DNA of 64,000 nt from an uncultured Candidatus Saccharimonas sp. (GTDB taxonomy: Bacteria > Patescibacteriota > Saccharimonadia > Saccharimonadales > AWTP1-31). Position numbers and translations under genes: made by a program. Numbering within the stretch: the stretch's first letter is position 1; every line of letters starts with the position of its first letter. The stretch covers positions 64,147 through 128,146 of the forward strand of contig CALRBE010000001.1 in the NCBI GenBank assembly GCA_943354005.1, in the 5' to 3' direction. Positions 5,673 through 63,955 of the stretch are shown here, piece by piece. Under the pieces are notes generated by a model. The model was not told the origin of the DNA and ran no database searches. It was given only the letters and a program-made list of their open reading frames with translations.

Positions 5673-6349
5673 CCCTTGTACGCCGCTCCCGCCCGATCGC
5701 TAACAATACTTCCTGCTTCCATAGTAATGACTCGTCGCTTTAATTTATTTACAATTTCCTGGTTGTGGGTTGTGAGTATCACGGTTGTTCCAAATTTATT
5801 TATCTTTTCAAGAACCCTAATAACATCCCAAGCATGCTTTGGATCAAGATTTCCTGTTGGCTCATCAGCAATTAGTATGCGAGGTTGACGGACAATCGCC
5901 CTAGCAATTGCAACTCGTTGACGTTCACCACCAGAAAGTTCTTCAGGCATTCTTTTTTCTTTACCTTTTAATCCGACAATATCAAGCACACGTGGTACTG
6001 TGTTTTCTATTTCTTTATTGCCCATTCCAACTATTTCGAGAGCAAATGCCACGTTTTCAAATACAGTCTTATTTGGTAACAATTTAAAATCCTGGAAGAC
6101 TACACCTATTTTACGGCGCAGTAATGGTATTTCTTTATCTTTCAAAGTTTCGTAATCAATGCCGCCAACGATTATTTTTCCAGATGTAGGCTTTTCTTCT
6201 CGAGTAAGTAGCTTCAGTAGTGTTGACTTACCTGCTCCACTAGGACCTATGATAATAACGAATTCCTTGGGTTCAACATGTAGACTGATACGCTCTAGGG
6301 CTTGGCCGTTTTTATTATAAGTTTTTGTTACTCGATCTAATAGAATCAT
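5669..6349 (-). CDS. ftsE: cell division ATP-binding protein FtsE
   Basis: 226 aa. Walker A GPSGAGKST, ABC signature LSGGERQR, Walker B ILIADEPT. Immediately upstream of ftsX. Confidence 0.92.
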   Translation of the reverse strand: MILLDRVTKTYNKNGQALERISLHVEPKEFVIIIGPSGAGKSTLLKLLTREEKPTSGKIIVGGIDYETLKDKEIPLLRRKIGVVFQDFKLLPNKTVFENVAFALEIVGMGNKEIENTVPRVLDIVGLKGKEKRMPEELSGGERQRVAIARAIVRQPRILIADEPTGNLDPKHAWDVIRVLEKINKFGTTVILTTHNQEIVNKLKRRVITMEAGSIVSDRAGAAYKG

Positions 6350-20492: not shown

Positions 20493-22013
20493 CTATTTAG
20501 ATAGTTTAAGGTCTGGGTAGATAGTTTTAGTAACTTCATCGACTTCGCTACGTAGCTGAGGAAAAGGAACACCTTCTCTTGCAGATACATTTTCAAAAAT
20601 CCAAAATACACGCTCGCTAAAGCCCCAGCCACAAGCTGGTGGCATGCCATATTCGAGCATTTCAACATAATCAATATCGAGCATCATAGCTTCGTCGTCT
20701 CCAGCGTCACGCATGTTCTGTTGTTCTGTGAATCGATTAAGCTGATCAATAGGATCATTTAGCTCTGTAAATCCATTTCCAAGCTCACTACCCGCGATAA
20801 CTGGCTGGAATCTCTGTACTGTATCTGGATTTTCAGGGTTTATTTTAGCAAGTGGGCTAATGAATAGTGGTGTATTAATAAGCCAAACTGGTCCGGCTAC
20901 ATCTTTACGAATATTTTTCCATAGTTTATCGATTCCACGAGCCTTGTTTTCAGTCTGAGCTACTTCTAACTTATGGTCCTTTAGCGCACTCTTCACTTCA
21001 TCTAGTGTGCAGTTGAATACGTCAATACCGTATTTGTTTTTAATAACTTCAGCATAGTCCCATTGCTCCCAATCCTTAGATAGATCAACATCAAATTCAC
21101 CAATCTTAAATTTAAGAGTTCCGAAAGTCTTTTCAATTACGTGACGATACATATCCGTCATAAACGCGATCCCGTCCTGCCAGTCAGCGTATGCCCAATA
21201 CCACTCCATGGCTATGTGCTCAGGTAGATGCTCGTCAGTATAGTTTTCGTTCCTAAAGCGCGGACCAATGTCGTATACCTTATTGTAACCACCGCCAACT
21301 AATCGCTTAAGAGGCAGCTCATGACTGATTCGTAAGTAGAAGTCTTGATCAATAGCATCCATATGGGTCACGAAAGGATTAGCGTCAGCTCCTCCTGTTG
21401 TATGTTCTAGAACAGGAACATTAATTTCTATAAAATCATTTTTATTCAGAAAGTCTCTTGTAGCTTGCCAGAATTTAGATCGACGGATGAATCGATTATA
21501 GACGTCTTGATTAACGTTGGTATCTATATAACGTCGACGTAATCGTTCTTCTTTATTAGAAAACCCGTCTTGTGCAGTTGGCATTGGACGTAGGCTTTTT
21601 GAGAGTAACCGTAGTGAGTTCACAGTAATCGACTGTTCACCAGTTTTAGTTGTTGCAGCTATACCAGTAACCTCAATGAAGTCACCTGAATCTAGAAGGT
21701 TAATATTCTCAAACTTAAGCTCACTATTTAAGTAATCTACTTCCTGCATACTTGCTTCGTTAAGGAAAACTTGCATTGTAGCGTGCGCATCTTTGATAAC
21801 AATAAAGGCAATCTTTCCAAATTTTCGGATCGCAGTTATTCTACCGGCCGTTGTTACATTACTTCCCTTTTTTTCAAGTTCAGGATAGTTTGCAAGAACC
21901 TGAGATACTGCATGAGTTATTTGAGATTTAGCAGGGTATGGATTTATCCCGAGATTTTTTAAATCATCGAGTTTACGTAGTCTTTCGTTTCGTAGTTCTT
22001 TGAGTGTAGCCAT
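20493..22013 (-). CDS. lysS: lysyl-tRNA synthetase, class II
   Basis: 506 aa from MATLKELRNERLRKL at 22013; the track ORF starts 10 codons earlier. OB-fold anticodon-binding domain and class II core (GPRFRNENYTDEHLPE, GSELGNGFTELNDP). Confidence 0.95.
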   Translation of the reverse strand: MATLKELRNERLRKLDDLKNLGINPYPAKSQITHAVSQVLANYPELEKKGSNVTTAGRITAIRKFGKIAFIVIKDAHATMQVFLNEASMQEVDYLNSELKFENINLLDSGDFIEVTGIAATTKTGEQSITVNSLRLLSKSLRPMPTAQDGFSNKEERLRRRYIDTNVNQDVYNRFIRRSKFWQATRDFLNKNDFIEINVPVLEHTTGGADANPFVTHMDAIDQDFYLRISHELPLKRLVGGGYNKVYDIGPRFRNENYTDEHLPEHIAMEWYWAYADWQDGIAFMTDMYRHVIEKTFGTLKFKIGEFDVDLSKDWEQWDYAEVIKNKYGIDVFNCTLDEVKSALKDHKLEVAQTENKARGIDKLWKNIRKDVAGPVWLINTPLFISPLAKINPENPDTVQRFQPVIAGSELGNGFTELNDPIDQLNRFTEQQNMRDAGDDEAMMLDIDYVEMLEYGMPPACGWGFSERVFWIFENVSAREGVPFPQLRSEVDEVTKTIYPDLKLSK

Positions 22014-22078
22014 TAGATCACAGTATAACTTCTTTCGTGGCATCAGCCAAGAACAAGCTGTAGACTTAGCTCTGTTAT
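21984..22078. repeat. 95-bp direct repeat, copy 1 (lysS promoter, start and first 10 codons)
   Basis: Identical to 23006-23100 except one base (g at 22037 versus a at 23059). Contains TTGGCT-17-TATACT on the minus strand (22045-22050 and 22022-22027) and the lysS ATG at 22013. Confidence 0.9.
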
Positions 22079-22190
22079 CTTATAATGCGTTGTTTCTGCA
22101 GGTAAAATAATTTGTACAAATTCAGTAACCGAATCGGCAAAATCTTTTTCCAGTTCGTTTAAGCCATATTTGCTGAGTCAGTTTTTGGCA
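22075..22190 (-). pseudogene. decayed greA remnant with internal deletion
   Basis: An exact 17-mer, gcgttgtttctgcaggt, is shared with the greA 3' end. The segment ttcagtaaccgaatcggcaaaatctttttccagttcgtt closely matches the greA 5' region near 23487-23527. About 330 bp of greA is missing and there is no intact ORF. Confidence 0.6.
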
Positions 22191-22216
22191 AAAGAACTAT
22201 ATCGCACGGAATGCTA

Positions 22217-23035
22217 TCAGCTATTATTTACTATACCCAGTAAATCTTCGTGAATAACACCGTTAGAAATTATTACGCCTCCAGTTAGCTCCTCATTAAA
22301 ACGATGATCTAAACCTTTCGCATTCGTTAGTCTACCGCCAGCTTCCTCGACAATGAGTTTAACAGCCGCCATATCCCAAGGTTGGATTGTTTCTGGCCAG
22401 ATTGTACCATCAGATAGTCCTTGTGCGATAAGAACACCCTTGAAAACGCCGCCATGAATAATGTTTGTTTGGTAGGCTTCTTTCGCAAGTCGTTCATACA
22501 TAGCTTGTCTTGAGTAAAGCCACTTTAGACCTGTCGGGAATGCTAGCCAAGCCTCGCTCATTTTACGTGAGCTTACGTGTATTGGCTTACCGTCAAAATA
22601 TGCACCGCCATCTTTTGTCGCCCAGAAAATACCGCCATTGGCTAAGTCGCCAGCAACCGCCACTACGGGCTTGCCGTTTTCAACCAAAGCAAGTGAAAAC
22701 ATAAAAGTAGGCTCGCCCATAGAAAATGCAATCGTGCCGTCAATTGGGTCGCAAACCCATAAGTATTCTTTATCTGTTTGCCAAGATTTCTCTTCGCCCA
22801 AAACACCGTGCTCAGGAAAATGCTCTTTAACCTTATTAATAACCAGCTGATTAATTTTTTCATCAGCGATAGTAACGGGCGATGTGTCGCTCTTCGTCAC
22901 AAACTTTAAGTCAGTTTTGTAGTATTGCGAGCTTATTTTTCGGGCATCCTCGGCAACCATCTTGGCAAATTGCAGGGCGTCGTCGTATTTATTAATCTTT
23001 TGCCCTTCGTTTCGTAGTTCTTTGAGTGTAGCCAT
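22217..23035 (-). CDS. inositol monophosphatase family protein (SuhB/HisN-like) with a lysS-derived N-terminus
   Basis: 272 aa. Metal-binding GEE (VLGEEKS) and WVCDPIDGT motifs. The first 10 codons, MATLKELRNE, are nucleotide-identical to the lysS start. Confidence 0.85.
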   Translation of the reverse strand: MATLKELRNEGQKINKYDDALQFAKMVAEDARKISSQYYKTDLKFVTKSDTSPVTIADEKINQLVINKVKEHFPEHGVLGEEKSWQTDKEYLWVCDPIDGTIAFSMGEPTFMFSLALVENGKPVVAVAGDLANGGIFWATKDGGAYFDGKPIHVSSRKMSEAWLAFPTGLKWLYSRQAMYERLAKEAYQTNIIHGGVFKGVLIAQGLSDGTIWPETIQPWDMAAVKLIVEEAGGRLTNAKGLDHRFNEELTGGVIISNGVIHEDLLGIVNNS

Positions 23036-23100
23036 TAGATCACAGTATAACTTCTTTCATGGCATCAGCCAAGAACAAGCTGTAGACTTAGCTCTGTTAT
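23006..23100. repeat. 95-bp direct repeat, copy 2
   Basis: See copy 1; the offset is 1022 bp. It spans the greA stop codon (23097-23099), a promoter-like TTGGCT-17-TATACT, and the IMPase-family start at 23035. Confidence 0.9.
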
Positions 23101-23558
23101 GCTATATCAGTTATCTTGTAGTGCGTTGTTTCTGCAGGTGTGACAATTTCTACGTGTTCACCAACTTTTTTTCCGAGAAGCGCCATACCAATTGGAGATT
23201 CATCTGATATCTTGCCATTCATTGGATCTGCTTCAACAGTTCCAACAACTTGAAATGCTTTTACGCTACCCTTTTCGCTCTTCATTTTAACTGAAGATCC
23301 GATTTGAACTTTACTATCGCCCTTAGGCTTCTTAATGACTTCAACGTTTTGTAAGATATTTTCTATCTCAGATATGCGAGTCTCAGTACGTTCTTGTTCT
23401 TGACGTGCAGAACTATACTCAGCGTTCTCTGAAAGATCACCAAATTCACGTGCAGTTTTAATGCGCTCAGCTATTGGGCCACGTTCAGCAACCAAATCGG
23501 CAAACTCTTTTTCCAGTTCGTTGATGCCTTCTTGTGTTAATAAGTATTGTTTTTTCAT
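23097..23558 (-). CDS. greA: transcription elongation factor GreA
   Basis: 153 aa. N-terminal coiled coil with acidic tip (GDLSENAEY) and a C-terminal globular domain. Confidence 0.93.
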   Translation of the reverse strand: MKKQYLLTQEGINELEKEFADLVAERGPIAERIKTAREFGDLSENAEYSSARQEQERTETRISEIENILQNVEVIKKPKGDSKVQIGSSVKMKSEKGSVKAFQVVGTVEADPMNGKISDESPIGMALLGKKVGEHVEIVTPAETTHYKITDIA

Positions 23559-23609
23559 AATTTATTCCTCTATTTCATCTATTGAATGTCTATTTAGGTG
23601 CTGGCTCGA

Positions 23610-24869
23610 TTACGATCCTACTGTAGCCAGGTATTCTAGTATACCATCATTGTCGAGCATTTTATTATCGGATTCCGTTCTTGCTTTAAGCTCATGCTTT
23701 CCGCTCTGACAGGTCTTTTCGCTGACTACAATTCTGTATGGAATTCCCATAAGATCAGCGTCGGCAAATTTCTGTCCGGCACGGACGTCTCTATCATCGT
23801 AAAACACTTCAATGCCGCGTTTACGCATATCATCGTACAGTTTATCTGAAGCCTTTACCACTTCTACGTCCTCACTTAATCGTGCTAGGTAGACTTTTGC
23901 AGGAGCAATTTGTGCTGGCCACACTAAACCTTTATCGTCGGCAAGTTTTTCAGCAATAACTCCCATAAGTCTACTAACACCGATACCGTATGAACCAAGG
24001 TGGACAAATTTCTTATCTCCCTTTTCGTCAGTATAGGTTAAGTCCATTTGTTCACTCTTATCGGTGCCAAAGTTGAAGATGTTTGCTACTTCACTACTCT
24101 TTACTTTTTCAAGCTCATCGCGAGTGATACCAAGCTTCTGAAGAGTTTCATCGTCAAGCACTTCTTCATTAATCGCGATATTCTTCTTTCGATGAATGTA
24201 AATAATATCCTCACCGGTTTCACATACTGTCTGGAATTCATGACTAAACTTAGTGAATGATCCACCGCTCGCAAAAGTTACATATGTATCATCTCCGAGT
24301 CCAAGTCTTTCAAAAACACGTACGTAGGCATCCATTACACCGTTATAGATCTTGTCGTGTTGAGTAGCATCGATTGAAGCTGTATACATATCATTCATAA
24401 AAAACTCACGGCCTCGCATAATACCGCTCTTTGATCTTAGCTCATTGCGAAGCTTTGTCTGGAACTGATAGACATTCACTGGAAGATCCTTATAGCTACT
24501 GATAAATGGTTTCATCATTTCTATAATTGGCTCTTCGTGAGTCCAGCCAAGTCCAATTTCAGTTCCATCTTTTAATTTTGTCTTAAACCATACGTCAACA
24601 ACATCATCATTCCAGCGAGTTGTAACTTCCCATTTTTCTCGAGCTTGCAGGCTTGTCATAATGAGCTCCTGCCCACCAATGGCATTCATTTCCTCTCTAA
24701 TGATTGTTTTAATGTTTTCAATAACTTTAAGTCCTAGTGGAAGAAATGCGTAGACTCCAGCCATTTCTTTATGAATAAATCCTGCTTGAATCAATAGTTG
24801 AGCATTACGAGCAGTTTCATTTGCTGGTGCATTTTTTGTCGTTTTGGTAAAAAGTTGGCTTGCTTTCAT
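23610..24869 (-). CDS. proS: prolyl-tRNA synthetase (short form, apparently lacking the INS editing domain)
   Basis: 419 aa. Bacterial-type N-terminus (MKASQLFTKTTKNAPANETARNAQLLIQAGF), class II motifs and a C-terminal anticodon-binding domain. It is about 150 aa shorter than canonical bacterial ProRS. Confidence 0.88.
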   Translation of the reverse strand: MKASQLFTKTTKNAPANETARNAQLLIQAGFIHKEMAGVYAFLPLGLKVIENIKTIIREEMNAIGGQELIMTSLQAREKWEVTTRWNDDVVDVWFKTKLKDGTEIGLGWTHEEPIIEMMKPFISSYKDLPVNVYQFQTKLRNELRSKSGIMRGREFFMNDMYTASIDATQHDKIYNGVMDAYVRVFERLGLGDDTYVTFASGGSFTKFSHEFQTVCETGEDIIYIHRKKNIAINEEVLDDETLQKLGITRDELEKVKSSEVANIFNFGTDKSEQMDLTYTDEKGDKKFVHLGSYGIGVSRLMGVIAEKLADDKGLVWPAQIAPAKVYLARLSEDVEVVKASDKLYDDMRKRGIEVFYDDRDVRAGQKFADADLMGIPYRIVVSEKTCQSGKHELKARTESDNKMLDNDGILEYLATVGS

Positions 24870-59167: not shown

Positions 59168-59175
59168 GACTATAA

Positions 59176-59291
59176 TTCGGCACCGTGCTATTTTCCCAGG
59201 GCTTGATGACCCAAGTATTGTAACCGCTGCAAGGCTTAACTTCTGTGTTCGGTATGGGAACAGGTGTCTCCCTCGCGCCATGGGCACCGAC
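59176..59291 (-). rRNA. rrf: 5S ribosomal RNA
   Basis: The reverse complement contains the universal CCCAUACCGAACACAGAAGUUAAGC block. The terminal helix UCGGUGCC/GGUGCCGA includes two G-U pairs. Ends are accurate to about 3 nt. Confidence 0.9.
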
Positions 59292-59732
59292 TATCGAAAA
59301 CTACGTCTATGTAGTTTTCGCATGTCGGTGTCCATACGAGTGTTTATATATAAGTTATCTAAGACAAACTGTGCTATCAATACTGATATGCACCAAAAAC
59401 TAGCCAATTGTCTATTCCAGATAAAGTGTGCAAGCACACAATATCTGGAGTCATAAAAAGTCAATGCACCTATTAGTACGCTTCGGCTCAATACGTTGCC
59501 GCACTTTCACCTTGCGCCTATCAACCTGATCGTCTTTCAGGGGTGTCATAGGGAAATCTAATCTTGAGGTCAGTTTCGCGCTTAATATGCTTTCAGCGCT
59601 TATCTATTCCGCACTTAGCTACCCAACAATGCTCTTGGTAGAACAATTGGTACACCAGCGGTGCGTCCACTCCGGTCCTCTCGTACTAGGAGCAGATCCT
59701 CTCAAATTTCCTGACGTCCACAGCGGATATAA

Positions 59733-59803
<71 letters not shown>

Positions 59804-59817
59804 AAGGTGCTCCCCCT

Positions 59818-59852
<35 letters not shown>

Positions 59853-60433
59853 AGCGCCGTCTATGTGAACTATTGGGCGCTATAAGCCTGTTATCCCCGG
59901 CGTAACTTTTATCCGATAGCGCTGTCGATACCACTCTCATGTACGAATGTACGGACAGCGGAAAACTTACTCCCACTTTCGTGCCTGATTGGCTTGTAGG
60001 CCTCACAGTCAAGCTGGCTTATGCGTATGCACTATCGATTCGATTTCCATCCGAATCTAGCCAACCTTTGAACGCCTCCGCTACTCTTTAGGAGGCAACC
60101 GCCCCAGTTAAACTACCCACCAGACACGGTCCCGGAACCAGTACACACTCACGAGTAAAAACTCATGAACATATAATGGTCCCGGTAAGAATAAAACTAC
60201 AACAAGGGTGGTATTTCACTGATGACTCCACACTAGCTAGCGCTAGAGCTTCAAAGTCTCCCACCTATCCTACACATGTTGCAGCTCGATCCAATGTCAA
60301 GCTGTAGTAAAGCTGCACGGGGTCTTTTCGTCCTGCTGCGGACAGACGGCATCTTTACCGTCAATGCACTTTCACCGAGCTCTTCGTTGAGACAGTACCC
60401 ATATCATTACTCCATTCGTGCGGGTCAGAACTT

Positions 60434-61133
60434 CATTTTAGTTAGCTGTTCGTTTCCAAACAGATCAGACTATCTTTTCATCTCGCCAAAATTTTTAGGA
60501 GGTCTTCTTGTGTATTGCGTCGTGTTCCAGATTCATTCATTAGATAACTCTTCTGAATAATCTGCTCAAGATAATCATGATTTAGGTGTTTTGACTGATG
60601 AATCAGTTCACACACTTCAGTGAAAATCTTAAAATCACGCGCTTTACTGGTTCGTAATGGATATTTCTTAAAATGCGGGATAATCCTTCTCTCTAAATCG
60701 CCTATCGAACGTACCTCATATCGGTACATCTGATCGCGTTTACTGAAACGAATCGCACCACATCCGAAATAGGTATGAATATCTTTCAATACCTGAAGGC
60801 TGCGTTTGTTTTGAGCTATCGAAAAACTGGGTCGAACTTCTATTCCTGTTTTAAGTTTCGCTCGCCGGTTAAAACTAACCGAAAAACAACCTTCTCCATC
60901 TGCAAATCCTGTTATATACCAAGAAAACTCCGTGAATTCCTTTTTGGGACGAGAGCCAACGTATTGTACATTTTGTTTCATATGTACCTCTCCTTTCGGA
61001 TCAGTCGTTACGGCTTCCATTCATAAGAATGATTGCCACGGGATTGTCTTAATATCTTGTTAGATATCGTAGATTTCCCCGTTATTAGTTGGTTTACTCT
61101 TAACAAATCGCTTTGTTAATCAGGCAATTCTTT
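60434..61133 (-). mobile_element. group I intron in 23S rRNA (inserted after the E. coli U1951 equivalent)
   Basis: Removing 60434-61133 restores GUCAGGU|AAGUUCUGACCCGCACGAAUGG (E. coli GUCGGGUAAGUUCCGACCUGCACGAAUGG). The 5' exon ends in U. Intron GCCUG (61121-61125) can pair with exon CAGGU to form P1 with the U-G wobble. The intron ends in G (60434). Confidence 0.9.
60478..60981 (-). CDS. LAGLIDADG homing endonuclease (single-motif, intron-encoded)
   Basis: 167 aa from MKQNVQY at 60981, preceded by a strong SD AAAGGAGAGG; the track ORF starts at 61020. LAGLIDADG motif WYITGFADGEGCF. I-CreI-like size. Confidence 0.9.
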   Translation of the reverse strand: MKQNVQYVGSRPKKEFTEFSWYITGFADGEGCFSVSFNRRAKLKTGIEVRPSFSIAQNKRSLQVLKDIHTYFGCGAIRFSKRDQMYRYEVRSIGDLERRIIPHFKKYPLRTSKARDFKIFTEVCELIHQSKHLNHDYLEQIIQKSYLMNESGTRRNTQEDLLKILAR

Positions 61134-62702
61134 ACCTGACAAGGAATTTCGCTACCTTAGGACGGTTATAGTTACCGCCGCCGTTCACCGGGGCTTCAGT
61201 TCGCACCGTGAAGCGCTCCCCTTAACCTTCCGGCACTGGGCAGGAGTCAGCCCCTATACATCCACTTTCGTGTTAGCAGAGACCTGTGTTTTTGGTAAAC
61301 AGTTGCATGGGTTCTTTAGCTGCGGCCCCGCCACATTATCTACCACGATAACGGGCTTGCTGGGGTCAGCTTTCTTTTCTGATATGAAATATCGTATTCT
61401 CAAATTGCTCGTTTATACAGGCTCAATTAAGAAGTTAATAACTTAATTGAACTACTGTTTGTTTCCTGAAAAGAAAACTGGCAAGCCACTTGTCATAAAC
61501 AAAGTGGCGGGGCAGACCTTATCCCGAAGTTACGGTCGCTGTATTGCCGAGTTCCTTAACGAAGAATCACTCGTACGCCTTGGTCTACTCGACCTGAGCA
61601 CCTGTGTCGGTTTGCGGTACGGATAACTATGTACATAAGTTTGAAAGCTTTTCTGGTCAGCACTCTCGGAGGAATCGGCCCTAATGGGCCTTTCATTCGT
61701 AGTTGTTACGCTACTTAGACGGATATAACCATGAACCCGCTCCTCCTAACATGCCGCGCACTTCAAACAATACAAAGCTAGTACGGGAATATTAACCCGT
61801 TGTCCATCGCCTACGCTACGCGCCTCGGCTTAGGACCGACTAACCCTGGGACGATTATCGTTGCCCAGGAAACCTTGCTCTTTCGGCGGGCAGGATTCTC
61901 ACCTGCCTTATGGTTACTCATTCCAACATTCTCACTTGATAACGCTCCACCGAACCTCGCAGTTCGACTTCAACGCAGATATCAACGCTCCTCTACCGCT
62001 CATATAAATACAAGCTCGCAGCTTCGGTAATACACTTTAGCCCCGTTACATTTTCCGCGCAAGATCTCTTGACTAGTGAGCTGTTACGCACTCTTTAAAT
62101 GAATGGCTGCTTCTAAGCCAACATCCTAGTTGTCCAAGAAATCTCACCTCGTTTCCCACTGAGTGTATATTTAGGGACCTTAGCTGGCGATCTGGGCTGT
62201 TTCCCTTTTGAGCACGGAGCTTAGCCCCCGTGTTCTAACTGCCGTAGTTCCGCATATGGTATTCGTAGTTTGTCAAGGGTGGGTAACCTTGCGGCCCCCA
62301 GTCCAAAACAGAGCTCTACCCCCATATGTTACCGTACGACGCTAGCCCTAAAGCTATTTCGAGGAGAACCAGCTATCTCCAGGTTCGATTGGCATTTCAC
62401 CGCTAACCACAGGTCATCCGGGCATGTTGCAATATGCTACGGTTCGGTCCTCCACGCAGTTTTACCTGCGCTTCAACCTGCCCATGGTTAGGTCACCTGG
62501 TTTCGGGTCTAATCGCTAGTACTCGGTCGGCCTATTCAGCCTCGCTTTCACTACGCCTCCATCAAATGACTTAGGCTTGCACTAGCAATTAACTCGTTGG
62601 ATCGTTCTACAAAAAGCACGCAGTCACCGGACAAGCCGGCTCCTACTCCTTGTACGCACACAATTTCAGGTTCTATTTCACTCCCCTTCCGGGGTTCTTT
62701 TT

Positions 62703-62733
<31 letters not shown>

Positions 62734-63605
62734 ATCGTAAGATATATTTAGCCTTGGAGGGTGGTCCCCCCAGATTCAGTCAGAGTTTCACGTGTTCCGA
62801 CCTACTCGACAACGTATGAGACAAAACCTTAAGTTTTGCTATTCGCAGAACACAAGGTTCTGCCTCATAACTTACAAATATAAGGTTTGCAACGCTTAAC
62901 ATACCGGGCTATCACCGTCTTTGGCGCACCTTTCCAGGTGCTTCTGCTCGCATTGCAAATTTCTTACCTTATGTACGCTAATGGTAGCGCGTACCCCCAC
63001 TACAGATAACTGATAAATCAGTGATCTGTACTGGTTTTTTGTAATGTCACAACCCCCTATACACATTCGTCTACCAACTTATCCATTAGGCAATAAATTA
63101 CCAGATGGAAGTCTATAAGGTTTGGGCTCTTCCGGTTTCGCTCGCCACTACTTCCGGAATCGTTGTTTACTTTCTCTTCCTCGGGGTACTAAGATGTTTC
63201 AGTTCCCCCGGTTACCGCTCTCCTGGCCTATATATTCAGCCAAGCGCAGATAGACATTACTCTACCTAGGTTTCCCCATTCGGAAATCTTCGGTTCATAG
63301 CTTGTTAGCAGCTCCCCGAAGCTTATCGCAGCTTTCTACGTCCTTCATCGGTATCTTACGTCAAGGCATCCTTTGTGTGCGCTTGAGTAACTTTTTATGC
63401 ACTGACAATTGACTAGTTATTGGTAAACACCAATTACTATTGTGATACAAAACGTATCACATGCCGTTTGTCTTAAATTTACTTATTTCTTCAACTAAAT
63501 TGTTAAGTTACGAACTCAAAGGAATCCACCGATTTATTCCCACTTCCTTGAGTTTACACTGATGACTTTTTCGGGCCACGTGTCTAAACTCAAAGATACC
63601 AACAC

Positions 63606-63788: not shown

Positions 63789-63865
63789 TGGTGGAGCAAC
63801 GGGGACTCGAACCCCGGACCCCCTGCTTGCAAAGCAGGTGCTCTAGCCAACTGAGCTATTGCCCC
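63789..63865 (-). tRNA. tRNA-Ala (UGC), CCA encoded
   Basis: The reverse complement folds as a cloverleaf. Acceptor GGGGCAA/UUGCUCC has the G3-U70 pair. Anticodon loop is UUUGCAA and the T-loop is GGUUCGAGUCC. Confidence 0.95.
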
Positions 63866-63878
63866 ATATAAAAGTTCT

Positions 63879-63955
63879 TGGTGGGCGATGAGGGACTCGA
63901 ACCTCCGACCTCGTCATTATCAGTGACGCGCTCTAACCAGCTGAGCTAATCGCCC
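63879..63955 (-). tRNA. tRNA-Ile (GAU), CCA encoded
   Basis: Reverse complement: GGGCGAUUAGCUCAGCUGGUUAGAGCGCGUCACUGAUAAUGACGAGGUCGGAGGUUCGAGUCCCUCAUCGCCCACCA. Anticodon GAU, discriminator A73. Confidence 0.95.

Follow-up and report, generated by a model that had tools for sequence, protein, structure and literature searches.

An inositol-monophosphatase-family (IMPase) gene lying between greA and lysS in this Saccharibacteria species is probably driven by a second copy of the lysS promoter, which supplies an accessory, startless IMPase body with a promoter, a start codon and the first ten codons of lysS. In the history that we propose from sequence comparison, the ancestral order would have been proS-greA-lysS, with lysS read from a promoter TTGGCT-17-TATACT that leaves 8 nt between its -10 box and the ATG, and with no Shine-Dalgarno (SD) sequence. 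A rearrangement would then have duplicated a segment of 553 bp or more that begins at the greA start codon, or slightly ahead of it, and ends with lysS codon 10, and the IMPase body would have landed between the copies, joined in frame after lysS codon 10. The IMPase would draw on the upstream module for its promoter, for a 5'-terminal start codon on the mRNA and for ten LysRS residues, while the downstream copy would leave the essential lysS intact. Later, the redundant second greA decayed by substitutions, a stop codon and deletions of ~330 bp and 14 nt, the latter between 5-nt repeats. The route could have been tandem duplication with trimming, capture of DNA at a junction, or single-crossover integration; no intermediate arrangement was found among the loci compared.

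The duplicated module, the chimeric gene and the greA remnant

All genes and modules described here lie on the minus strand of the window, by which we mean the whole 64-kb stretch of DNA analysed. Its longest direct repeat is a pair of 95-nt copies, R_A (21984-22078) and R_B (23006-23100). An earlier note had reported 95-bp direct repeats with one mismatch, and local alignment returns the same length and the same mismatch position (+ strand 22037 G versus 23059 A); a repeat search pairs 21984-22084 with 23006-23106 (101 nt, 97% identity). A 42-nt core pattern of the repeat matches at the two copies only, with 0 matches expected from 100 shuffles. Between 21900 and 23700, the only sigma-70-like sites are the two copies of TTGGCT-17-TATACT (23072-23044 and 22050-22022), each with 8 nt between TATACT and an ATG. 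R_B runs from the 3' end of intact greA (stop codon 23099-23097) through the -35 TTGGCT (23072-23067) and the -10 TATACT (23049-23044) to an ATG (23035-23033) and the ten lysS-derived codons (23035-23006) that open the IMPase ORF. R_A comprises the native lysS promoter (-35 at 22050-22045, -10 at 22027-22022), its ATG (22013-22011) and lysS codons 1-10. Both ORFs open with MATLKELRNE, continuing as GQKINKYDD in the IMPase and as RLRKLDD in LysRS. The site scan, the ORFs and Pfam thereby uphold the note's further description, in which each copy carries the same promoter, 8-nt spacing, ATG and MATLKELRNE, the downstream copy leading into lysS and the upstream copy being fused in frame to an IMPase-family body. 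The note also placed the end of greA, with its TAA, in each copy. This is true of R_B, which holds the real greA stop; in R_A the TAA is the same letters only, out of frame in the greA remnant, whose true end was removed by the 14-nt deletion. The locus shows the arrangement by which promoter capture is recognized structurally: one resident promoter is present twice, once in its native place and once ahead of a gene that relatives lack or carry at another site.

The gene behind R_A, lysS (20493..22013, 506 aa), encodes a class II lysine--tRNA ligase with Pfam tRNA_anti-codon and tRNA-synt_2 domains, scoring 476 bits against NCBIfam NF001756 (cut-off 468) and 424.8 bits against TIGR00499, just below the cut-off of 427.6. 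The chimeric ORF behind R_B (22217..23035, 272 aa) takes codons 1-10 from lysS, and codons 11-272 (22217-23005) form the IMPase body. Pfam PF00459 (Inositol_P) matches its residues 20-270 with E=4e-42 and 145 bits (gathering cut-off 27). The metal-binding and catalytic motifs EE, DPxDGT and WDxAA are present, and a 50-sequence alignment shows no variation at E81, E82, D96, P97, D99, G100, T101, D221 and A223. The protein falls below every NCBIfam equivalog cut-off (HisN histidinol-phosphatase, CysQ, SuhB and FBPase/IMPase); the best is HisN, at 159 bits versus a cut-off of 275, with the others further below. Its codons differ from those of strain L094 by 14 synonymous and 7 non-synonymous changes. 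These data indicate purifying selection on the chimeric IMPase, with its function kept.

The nearest non-chimeric homologue of the IMPase is 67% identical. Orthologues among the 60 best matches have a short N-terminus of their own, M-x(3-12)-Y(D/E)xEL.FAK, and in matches to solved IMPase structures the alignment starts no earlier than query residue 13. Canonical in-frame starts of the chimeric ORF are limited to ATG1 and M26, and initiation at M26 would delete the nearly invariant helix residues L21/F23/A24; on this reading the IMPase body has no start of its own and needs the captured one. Four orthologues examined lie in four different gene contexts, two of them adjoined by large serine recombinases (HD-NUDIX-IMPase-DUF1045 in L010 and IMPase-DUF1045 in L008), and these comparisons mark the IMPase as an accessory gene. 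Composition, considered as a sign of horizontal transfer, is only mildly deviant (GC z=1.15, rank 4/59; GC3 z=1.48), which fits horizontal acquisition and a move from elsewhere in the genome alike. Searches of the window by tblastn gave no match to the orthologues' neighbors (HD, NUDIX, DUF1045, recombinase, primase, DUF87, PRK and CorA) and no second IMPase copy.

Upstream of the chimeric gene lies intact greA (23097..23558, 153 aa), with Pfam domains GreA_GreB_N and GreA_GreB and 176 bits against NCBIfam NF001263 (cut-off 145). The remnant (22079..22195) is a greA pseudogene in which a 5' part (about codons 1-25) is joined to a 3' part (about codons 134-149). Its ATG has become TTG, it contains an in-frame TGA, ~330 bp are gone, and beside R_A there is the 14-nt deletion, flanked by 5-nt ATAAC repeats. 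It shares with resident greA an exact 18-mer and 39 nt at 92% identity, along with families of 76 nt at 75% and 59 nt at 78%, and the local score lies well above chance (z=8.7 against 500 dinucleotide shuffles). Its alignable cores differ from greA at 12/89 positions (~13%). These substitutions fall 5/2/5 over the codon positions, so the remnant would have decayed in place and is no diverged functional allele. A foreign origin was rejected, as BLASTN against the greA genes of 80 species matched the resident species' greA only. The proposal that 3' and 5' greA sequence survives here minus ~330 bp is therefore borne out, as is the decay of a redundant copy, for which the best matches to resident greA, the unbiased substitutions, the stop and the deletions all speak.

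The layout of the module suggests why so much of lysS was captured. Leaderless genes are recognized by a -10-like box that precedes the start codon by ~10 nt and by the lack of an SD (PMC3160421), and both ATGs here have TATACT 8 nt before them. Of 80 Saccharibacteria species, 63 have a -10-like hexamer whose end lies 7-11 nt upstream of the lysS ATG, and an SD-like motif precedes lysS in only 8/80 versus 52/75 for greA; the same leaderless signature (-10 near the ATG, no SD) is found at 15 of the 59 genes in the window. The lysS mRNA thus looks leaderless or nearly so, which would explain why promoter and start codon had to be captured together. Since a leaderless start codon is itself the ribosome entry signal, the smallest unit able to activate a gene would be the promoter plus the first codons, and an N-terminal fusion would follow. 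Judging by titles and abstracts in the library searched, we found no paper that addresses leaderless initiation in Saccharibacteria or CPR.

Age and upkeep of the module

The near-identity of the two modules had been put down to recent origin or gene conversion. Recent origin does not fit: the whole structure is common to strain L094, which comes from another study and is 2.8% diverged, and the remnant cores are ~13% diverged with deletions, so that the duplication event is, on these comparisons, old. Conversion stands in part, as some exchange between the copies is indicated, yet selection appears to be the main cause. In the closest species (L013, with a LysRS 87% identical), greA is followed by a ~60-nt spacer and lysS with the same promoter and start module. 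Between this genome and L013, identity is 97% from the -35 to the ATG and 97% in codons 1-10, 64% over the 28 nt before the -35, and 68-78% in flanking coding DNA. Among the strains, no copy has a polymorphism in the -35, the -10 or the ATG, and the sole change in codons 1-10 is synonymous. These data make it more likely that near-identity stems mainly from purifying selection, with some exchange between the copies on top.

The alternative that ongoing gene conversion or recombination between the copies is the main cause, which would leave the core event unchanged, is the less likely account, although several patterns point its way. CCAC occurs in R_A of the window, L004 and L095, yet in R_B of L094 and L096; CTA/CTC segregates in R_B, with CTC in R_A and the outgroup; and R_A of the window has GC like R_B where 13 other contigs have AA. 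Moreover, two R_A sites 32 nt apart occur in all four combinations if R_B or the ancestral state is counted, which requires either recombination or recurrent mutation, and the two copies of the window are identical over the 28 nt that show no constraint between species. However, in most strains these 28 nt differ at 2 sites, a proportion similar to that of the remnant cores (2/28 versus 12/89, Fisher p=0.51), and there is 1 difference in the constrained 67 nt (p=0.007), as expected under selection. Recurrent mutation is plausible at one site, which has three alleles, and conversion is not required because the module is 97% conserved even between species. Within the preferred reading, constraint on the IMPase-side copy may be weaker than on the lysS copy, since the IMPase-side module of L094 differs from that of the window at 7/95 sites, approximately the synonymous rate.

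It is improbable that the upstream module is a passive leftover, with the IMPase expressed by read-through from greA and started at M26, leaving the ten codons untranslated. This account would accommodate three observations: the stretch from greA to the IMPase has no predicted terminator, the ATG of M26 is in frame, and R_B is more variable among strains than R_A. However, it would sacrifice the nearly invariant L21, F23 and A24, no SD-like motif precedes M26, and every strain keeps an open frame from ATG1 into the body. The unchanged -35, -10 and ATG of all copies, together with the purely synonymous variation in codons 1-10, likewise argue for a module in use, as does the occurrence of the same signature on about a quarter of the genes in the window.

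Population evidence and the ancestral locus

The species was found only in ENA, NCBI and Logan sources. Contigs assembled from separate samples of one project (15 or more), an NCBI MAG and a Logan contig from another study all have the order greA-R-IMPase-remnant-R-lysS; some of these contigs span one repeat copy and others both. Variants specific to each copy are consistent across contigs (GC versus AA, CTA versus CTC), and the upstream flanks of the copies differ. Short contigs L005, L006, L007 and L093 break in or at the repeat, which therefore does disturb short-read assembly and gives some grounds to suspect a chimeric join or collapsed repeat with no true duplication. Given the agreement across two sequencing projects, the copy-specific variants and flanks, and a repeat of 95 nt that is shorter than usual read lengths, we regard a mis-assembly as highly implausible. 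Among contigs matching the identical greA, none has greA directly adjoining lysS; a look-up with the exact LysRS gave one contig only, beginning at the lysS ATG. An apparent 21-nt deletion in the IMPase of L103 proved to be a scaffold gap of Ns and no real allele.

Contigs L095 and L004, as assembled, apparently carry two tandem units. This raises the tentative idea, which we consider somewhat less probable than its opposite, that the 1022-bp unit of module, IMPase and greA remnant, bounded by the 95-nt repeats, is a naturally amplifying cassette, and that the leaderless promoter and start act as a portable switch for acquired startless genes in Saccharibacteria. Unequal crossover between the repeats would then change IMPase copy number in the lake population, most contigs having one copy and L095 and L004 two. 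If so, the locus would show, as a snapshot from the field, how an ultra-small CPR bacterium with a reduced genome domesticates a gene by 'capture, then amplify', and, if the copy-number variation is real, it could serve for studying how genes amplify in populations of uncultivated CPR bacteria.

The locus in relatives sets the direction of the event. proS (23610..24869) is the upstream member of a conserved block whose order, proS-greA-lysS, is kept in 77/80 Saccharibacteria species, with a gap of at most 150 nt in 48. In none of the 80 species does an IMPase lie between greA and lysS, and none of the 80 loci has a second lysS start (searched as the first 30 nt of lysS with up to 4 mismatches); species L050 has a distant IMPase-family match (30% identity) downstream of lysS. 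This synteny supports the earlier note's ancestral greA-lysS junction, with adjacency and no IMPase as the probable ancestral state. The LysRS N-terminus MATLKELR(D/N)ERLRKL is nearly invariant in the 80 species, and among the 60 best IMPase matches MATLKELRNE is confined to a 97%-identical strain variant, which supports an origin of this prefix in LysRS and its transfer to the IMPase. The reverse polarity, in which the IMPase first owned the promoter and N-terminus and lysS acquired both, has only the symmetry of the repeat in its favor and can be dismissed: the LysRS N-terminus and the spacing from -10 to ATG are conserved in 80 species with no IMPase between greA and lysS, and the prefix is absent from the other IMPase orthologues among those 60 matches.

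Relation to known systems

Promoter capture by duplication is already known as a process, and the locus is a clear natural example of it rather than a new kind of system. In E. coli, promoter capture by tandem duplication or by deletion at microhomologies activates a silent or transferred gene (PMC6614815; follow-up PMC11111574), and Cit+ of the long-term evolution experiment is a promoter-capture case as cited in PMC6614815. As in those experiments, a rearrangement would have put a resident promoter before a promoterless gene, duplication spares the resident gene, and the resulting direct repeats permit further amplification. Unlike them, the Saccharibacteria event appears natural, fixed and old, in an uncultivated freshwater species; what was captured extends through the start codon and ten codons, which yields a protein fused in frame; and a decayed second greA records the extent of the duplication. 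Fixed natural captures are rarely so legible, the scar here being that second greA.

Leaderless genes with a -10 box beside the ORF have been described (PMC3160421), including in Deinococcus-Thermus (PMC12340547) and Mycobacterium (PMC3898074). The module resembles them, as judged here from sequence alone, in its TANNNT/TATACT box ~12-14 nt (from the first T) before the ATG and its lack of an SD. Duplication of a leaderless module driving a second gene was not found in the leaderless literature searched. In genomes with leaderless mRNAs, promoter and start would be captured jointly, forcing an N-terminal fusion, and our comparisons add evidence that lysS and about a quarter of the window's genes look leaderless in Saccharibacteria.

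Chimeric genes at duplication junctions are known mostly from eukaryotes, e.g. the tandem duplications of Drosophila (PMC4069613). The IMPase gene resembles these in that the 5' end of one gene is fused to the body of another and redundant DNA decays. The innovation-amplification-divergence model offers a further parallel. Unlike the junction chimeras, the fused part here is only ten residues long, and this fusion most likely serves expression rather than the gain of a protein domain.

Organization of the duplicated greA-lysS junction

Every gene at the locus is encoded on the minus strand. In the direction of transcription, an amino-acid-kinase-family gene (25673-24891), proS (24869-23610) and greA (23558-23097) are followed by the repeat copy R_B (23100-23006), an inositol-monophosphatase (IMPase)-family ORF (23035-22217; Pfam PF00459, E=4e-42), a greA fragment (about 22195-22079), the repeat copy R_A (22078-21984) and lysS (22013-20493). 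The two copies form the longest direct repeat of the 64-kb window. Their alignment agrees with the 95 nt and single mismatch recorded in an earlier note (plus strand, G at 22037 vs A at 23059), with similarity extending to 101 nt at 97%; a 42-nt core occurs at these two sites only, with 0 expected in shuffles. As that note also described, both copies carry TTGGCT-17-TATACT, 8 nt, and then ATG GCT ACA CTC AAA GAA CTA CGA AAC GAA (MATLKELRNE). Past codon 10, R_A reads on into LysRS (RLRKLDDLKNLG...) and R_B into the IMPase-family protein (GQKINKYDDALQFAK...). The two predicted module promoters are the only sigma-70-like sites on either strand of 21900-23700, an interval in which no terminator-like sites were found. 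Among close strains, a promoter-spacer site, CCA[T/C/A]GAAAG (window 23059 and 22037), has three alleles and varies in both copies; when the base is T, a TGA closes an upstream in-frame ATG, and with C or A a 10-codon extension opens, for which gene callers give a 282-aa IMPase or a 516-aa LysRS.

Between the IMPase stop and R_A, the resident greA is matched in two pieces (approximately codons 1-25 and 134-149), among them a perfect 18-mer and 39 nt at 92%. The local score lies 8.7 standard deviations over dinucleotide shuffles, confirming as above chance the previously proposed remnant, from which ~330 bp of greA is absent. BLASTN against greA of 80 species returned the resident species' gene as the only match. 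Since the alignment extends as far as the start of greA (TTATGAAAAAA vs TTTTGCCAAAA), the segment that was duplicated reached from the greA ATG, or a point shortly upstream of it, to lysS codon 10, a length of 553 bp or more. What is left is a dead pseudogene: it lacks an ATG, contains an in-frame TGA, and has a 14-nt deletion with flanking ATAAC repeats adjoining R_A. Its substitutions over codon positions 1/2/3 (5/2/5) are distributed as under neutral decay, not as in a diverged working allele.

The exact IMPase and GreA proteins recur in many contigs from different samples of one ENA project, in an NCBI MAG and in Logan assemblies, and all contigs of sufficient length carry greA-R-IMPase-remnant-R-lysS. 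A contig from a separate study, whose IMPase has a nucleotide divergence of 2.8%, shares the greA end, R_B, fusion junction and remnant start, and copy-specific variants were seen in 13 contigs (R_A = ACAGAAATAAG vs R_B = ACAGAGCTAAG). Breaks at the repeat, seen in some short contigs, are in keeping with its 95-nt length. The agreement of independent contigs across samples and studies, together with the copy-specific variants, rules out an assembly artefact, and the duplicated structure first noticed in the sequence stands.

Elsewhere in the window, a 23S rRNA match (59452-63397, minus strand) is 3946 nt long where the model has 2925 nt, implying ~1 kb of inserted sequence within the gene, possibly an intervening sequence or intron; such elements have been reported for CPR bacteria. 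A 5S rRNA lies at 59175-59291 and two tRNAs at 63792-63955. The counterpart of the window below ~16800 in two contigs of this species contains, according to the precomputed gene table, a heliorhodopsin-family gene (PF18761; L001:10968-11441, L003:7118-7591) downstream of a sortase gene, a few kb from the locus.

Origin of the module and of the IMPase gene

The LysRS N-terminus, MATLKELR(D/N)ERLRKL, varies very little across 80 species, and the order proS-greA-lysS is conserved, with the end of greA no more than 150 nt from lysS in 48 of 77 species. None of the 80 species has an IMPase gene between greA and lysS, as the ancestral adjacency proposed in the earlier note would predict, and in none is the lysS start duplicated; a distant IMPase-family match (30% identity) lies downstream of lysS in L050. 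In the closest other species (L013; LysRS 87% identical), greA is followed after ~60 nt by lysS with the same promoter. Among 6838 IMPase homologues, the MATLKELRNE prefix recurs only in one 97%-identical strain variant. The next best homologues are at most 67% identical, and the 60 with N-termini listed each begin with a short M-x(3-12)-Y(D/E)xEL.FAK of their own. Four IMPase orthologues occupy four unrelated contexts, two of which adjoin large serine recombinases (L010, L008). Conservation on the lysS side and absence of the prefix on the IMPase side indicate that the module is native to lysS; combined with the varied orthologue contexts, the same comparisons mark the IMPase gene as accessory and as having come without its own start.

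In both recombinase-adjoining contigs the IMPase belongs to a run of genes with overlapping ends: HD-NUDIX-IMPase-DUF1045 near a primase-like gene (L010:5317-8417), and IMPase-DUF1045 near a DUF87 gene (L008:4335-8405). These arrangements may represent a mobile cassette for nucleotide or phosphoester metabolism, whose other members the IMPase gene of the window has lost. The greA-lysS spot is itself variable across the class, with 300-2800 bp of extra spacer DNA in 25 of 77 species, comprising unrelated, species-specific ORFs (among them L014, L018, L021, L023, L029, L038, L039, L043, L047, L048, L054, L056, L058, L062, L066, L077, L079, L083, L084 and L090).

Age and conservation of the captured module

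Over its alignable cores, the remnant shows 12 differences from greA in 89 positions, and the structure is shared by the 2.8%-diverged strain; the event is therefore not recent, contrary to one of two explanations previously offered for the near-identity of the modules. It predates the split from that strain. Relative to L013, the stretch from -35 to ATG and lysS codons 1-10 are each 97% identical, against 64% for the 28 nt preceding -35 and 68-78% for flanking coding DNA, a contrast that places two-thirds of the repeat under strong purifying selection. In most strains, R_A and R_B differ at 2 of 28 unconstrained positions, a rate indistinguishable from that of the remnant (Fisher p=0.51), and at 1 of 67 constrained positions (p=0.007). 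No polymorphism was found in the -35, -10 or ATG across all strains and both copies, and the sole change within the ten codons is synonymous. Selection thus accounts for most of the module identity. The other proposed explanation, gene conversion, may hold in part. CCAC is found in R_A in some strains but in R_B in others, R_B is polymorphic for CTA/CTC, GC of the R_B type stands in the window's R_A where R_A of other contigs has AA, and all four combinations of two R_A sites lying 32 nt from each other occur, counting the ancestral state. These patterns are signs of exchange between the copies, and conversion would be a contributor to their identity rather than its main cause.

In one strain, greA codons 11-15 carry five substitutions in ~15 nt (L003 ~280-300; GGCATAACTGAGCTTGAA vs GGCATCAACGAACTGGAA), a pattern that importing a short tract by recombination from a diverged lineage would leave. 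One scaffold (L095:3001-6462; ERZ19568474 scaffold_1557) reads greA-R-IMPase-remnant-R-IMPase-remnant-R-lysS, with two tandem 1022-nt units of module, IMPase and greA remnant that differ by one base, inside R; a contig from another sample (L004:1-1172; ERZ18669278 scaffold_28864) opens with remnant-R-IMPase. The odds are about even between a real unequal crossover between the 95-nt repeats and a de Bruijn assembler loop through the repeat in a mixed-strain sample, although the R_A allele of both contigs (AA with C) is seen in no single-copy contig, which mildly favors a real variant.

The only canonical in-frame starts of the chimeric ORF are ATG1 and M26, and initiation at M26 would cost the first helix its nearly invariant L21, F23 and A24. 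Alignments to solved IMPase structures start at residue 13 or later, placing the ten added residues in a variable N-terminal tail. Metal-binding and catalytic residues are invariant, the junction frame is open in every strain, and the 14 synonymous versus 7 non-synonymous codon differences from the diverged strain argue for purifying selection on the chimera. All NCBIfam equivalog models fall below cut-off (best HisN, 159 bits vs 275), so none of them names a substrate for it.

Probable leaderless layout and candidate routes of capture

The -10 box of lysS ends 8 nt before the ATG, with no Shine-Dalgarno (SD) motif. Of the 80 species, 63 have a -10-like hexamer whose end lies 7-11 nt ahead of the lysS ATG; SD-like motifs precede lysS in 8 of 80 species versus greA in 52 of 75, and no -10 box was found in that position before greA. 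Within the window, a TATACT-like box precedes 15 of 59 putative genes, its end 6-11 nt from the ATG, and 14 of the 15 have no SD-like motif (examples start at 6349, 13178, 14016, 14704, 16809, 20454, 28479, 33744, 46339, 48129, 48898, 50851 and 57047). A -10 box near the ORF without an SD is a published signature of leaderless genes (PMC3160421). These data suggest that leaderless mRNAs are common in this Saccharibacteria genome; the titles and abstracts searched yielded no paper on the subject for the group. In leaderless transcripts, initiation is signaled by the 5'-terminal start codon itself. A body without a start therefore needs promoter and ATG together, and their joint acquisition entails an N-terminal fusion. 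The leaderless layout would thereby account for the need for fusion, and the sequence comparisons support the core of the earlier reading, a capture of promoter and N-terminus.

The structure requires a duplication and two new junctions, lysS codon 10/IMPase body and IMPase 3' end/greA start region. The IMPase may have inserted upstream, followed by tandem duplication ending in lysS codon 10 and trimming by deletion; tandem duplication with deletion trimming has been observed in E. coli experiments (PMC6614815). Alternatively, a short tandem duplication could have captured an IMPase fragment at its junction, or a circle already bearing greA-lysS' beside IMPase could have integrated by a single crossover. 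Neither an intermediate genome nor an IMPase donor was found among the genomes compared, and composition does not settle the matter. Overall, the locus is a well-documented case, found in nature, of a process already known, promoter capture accompanied by chimeric gene formation, and not a new kind of system.
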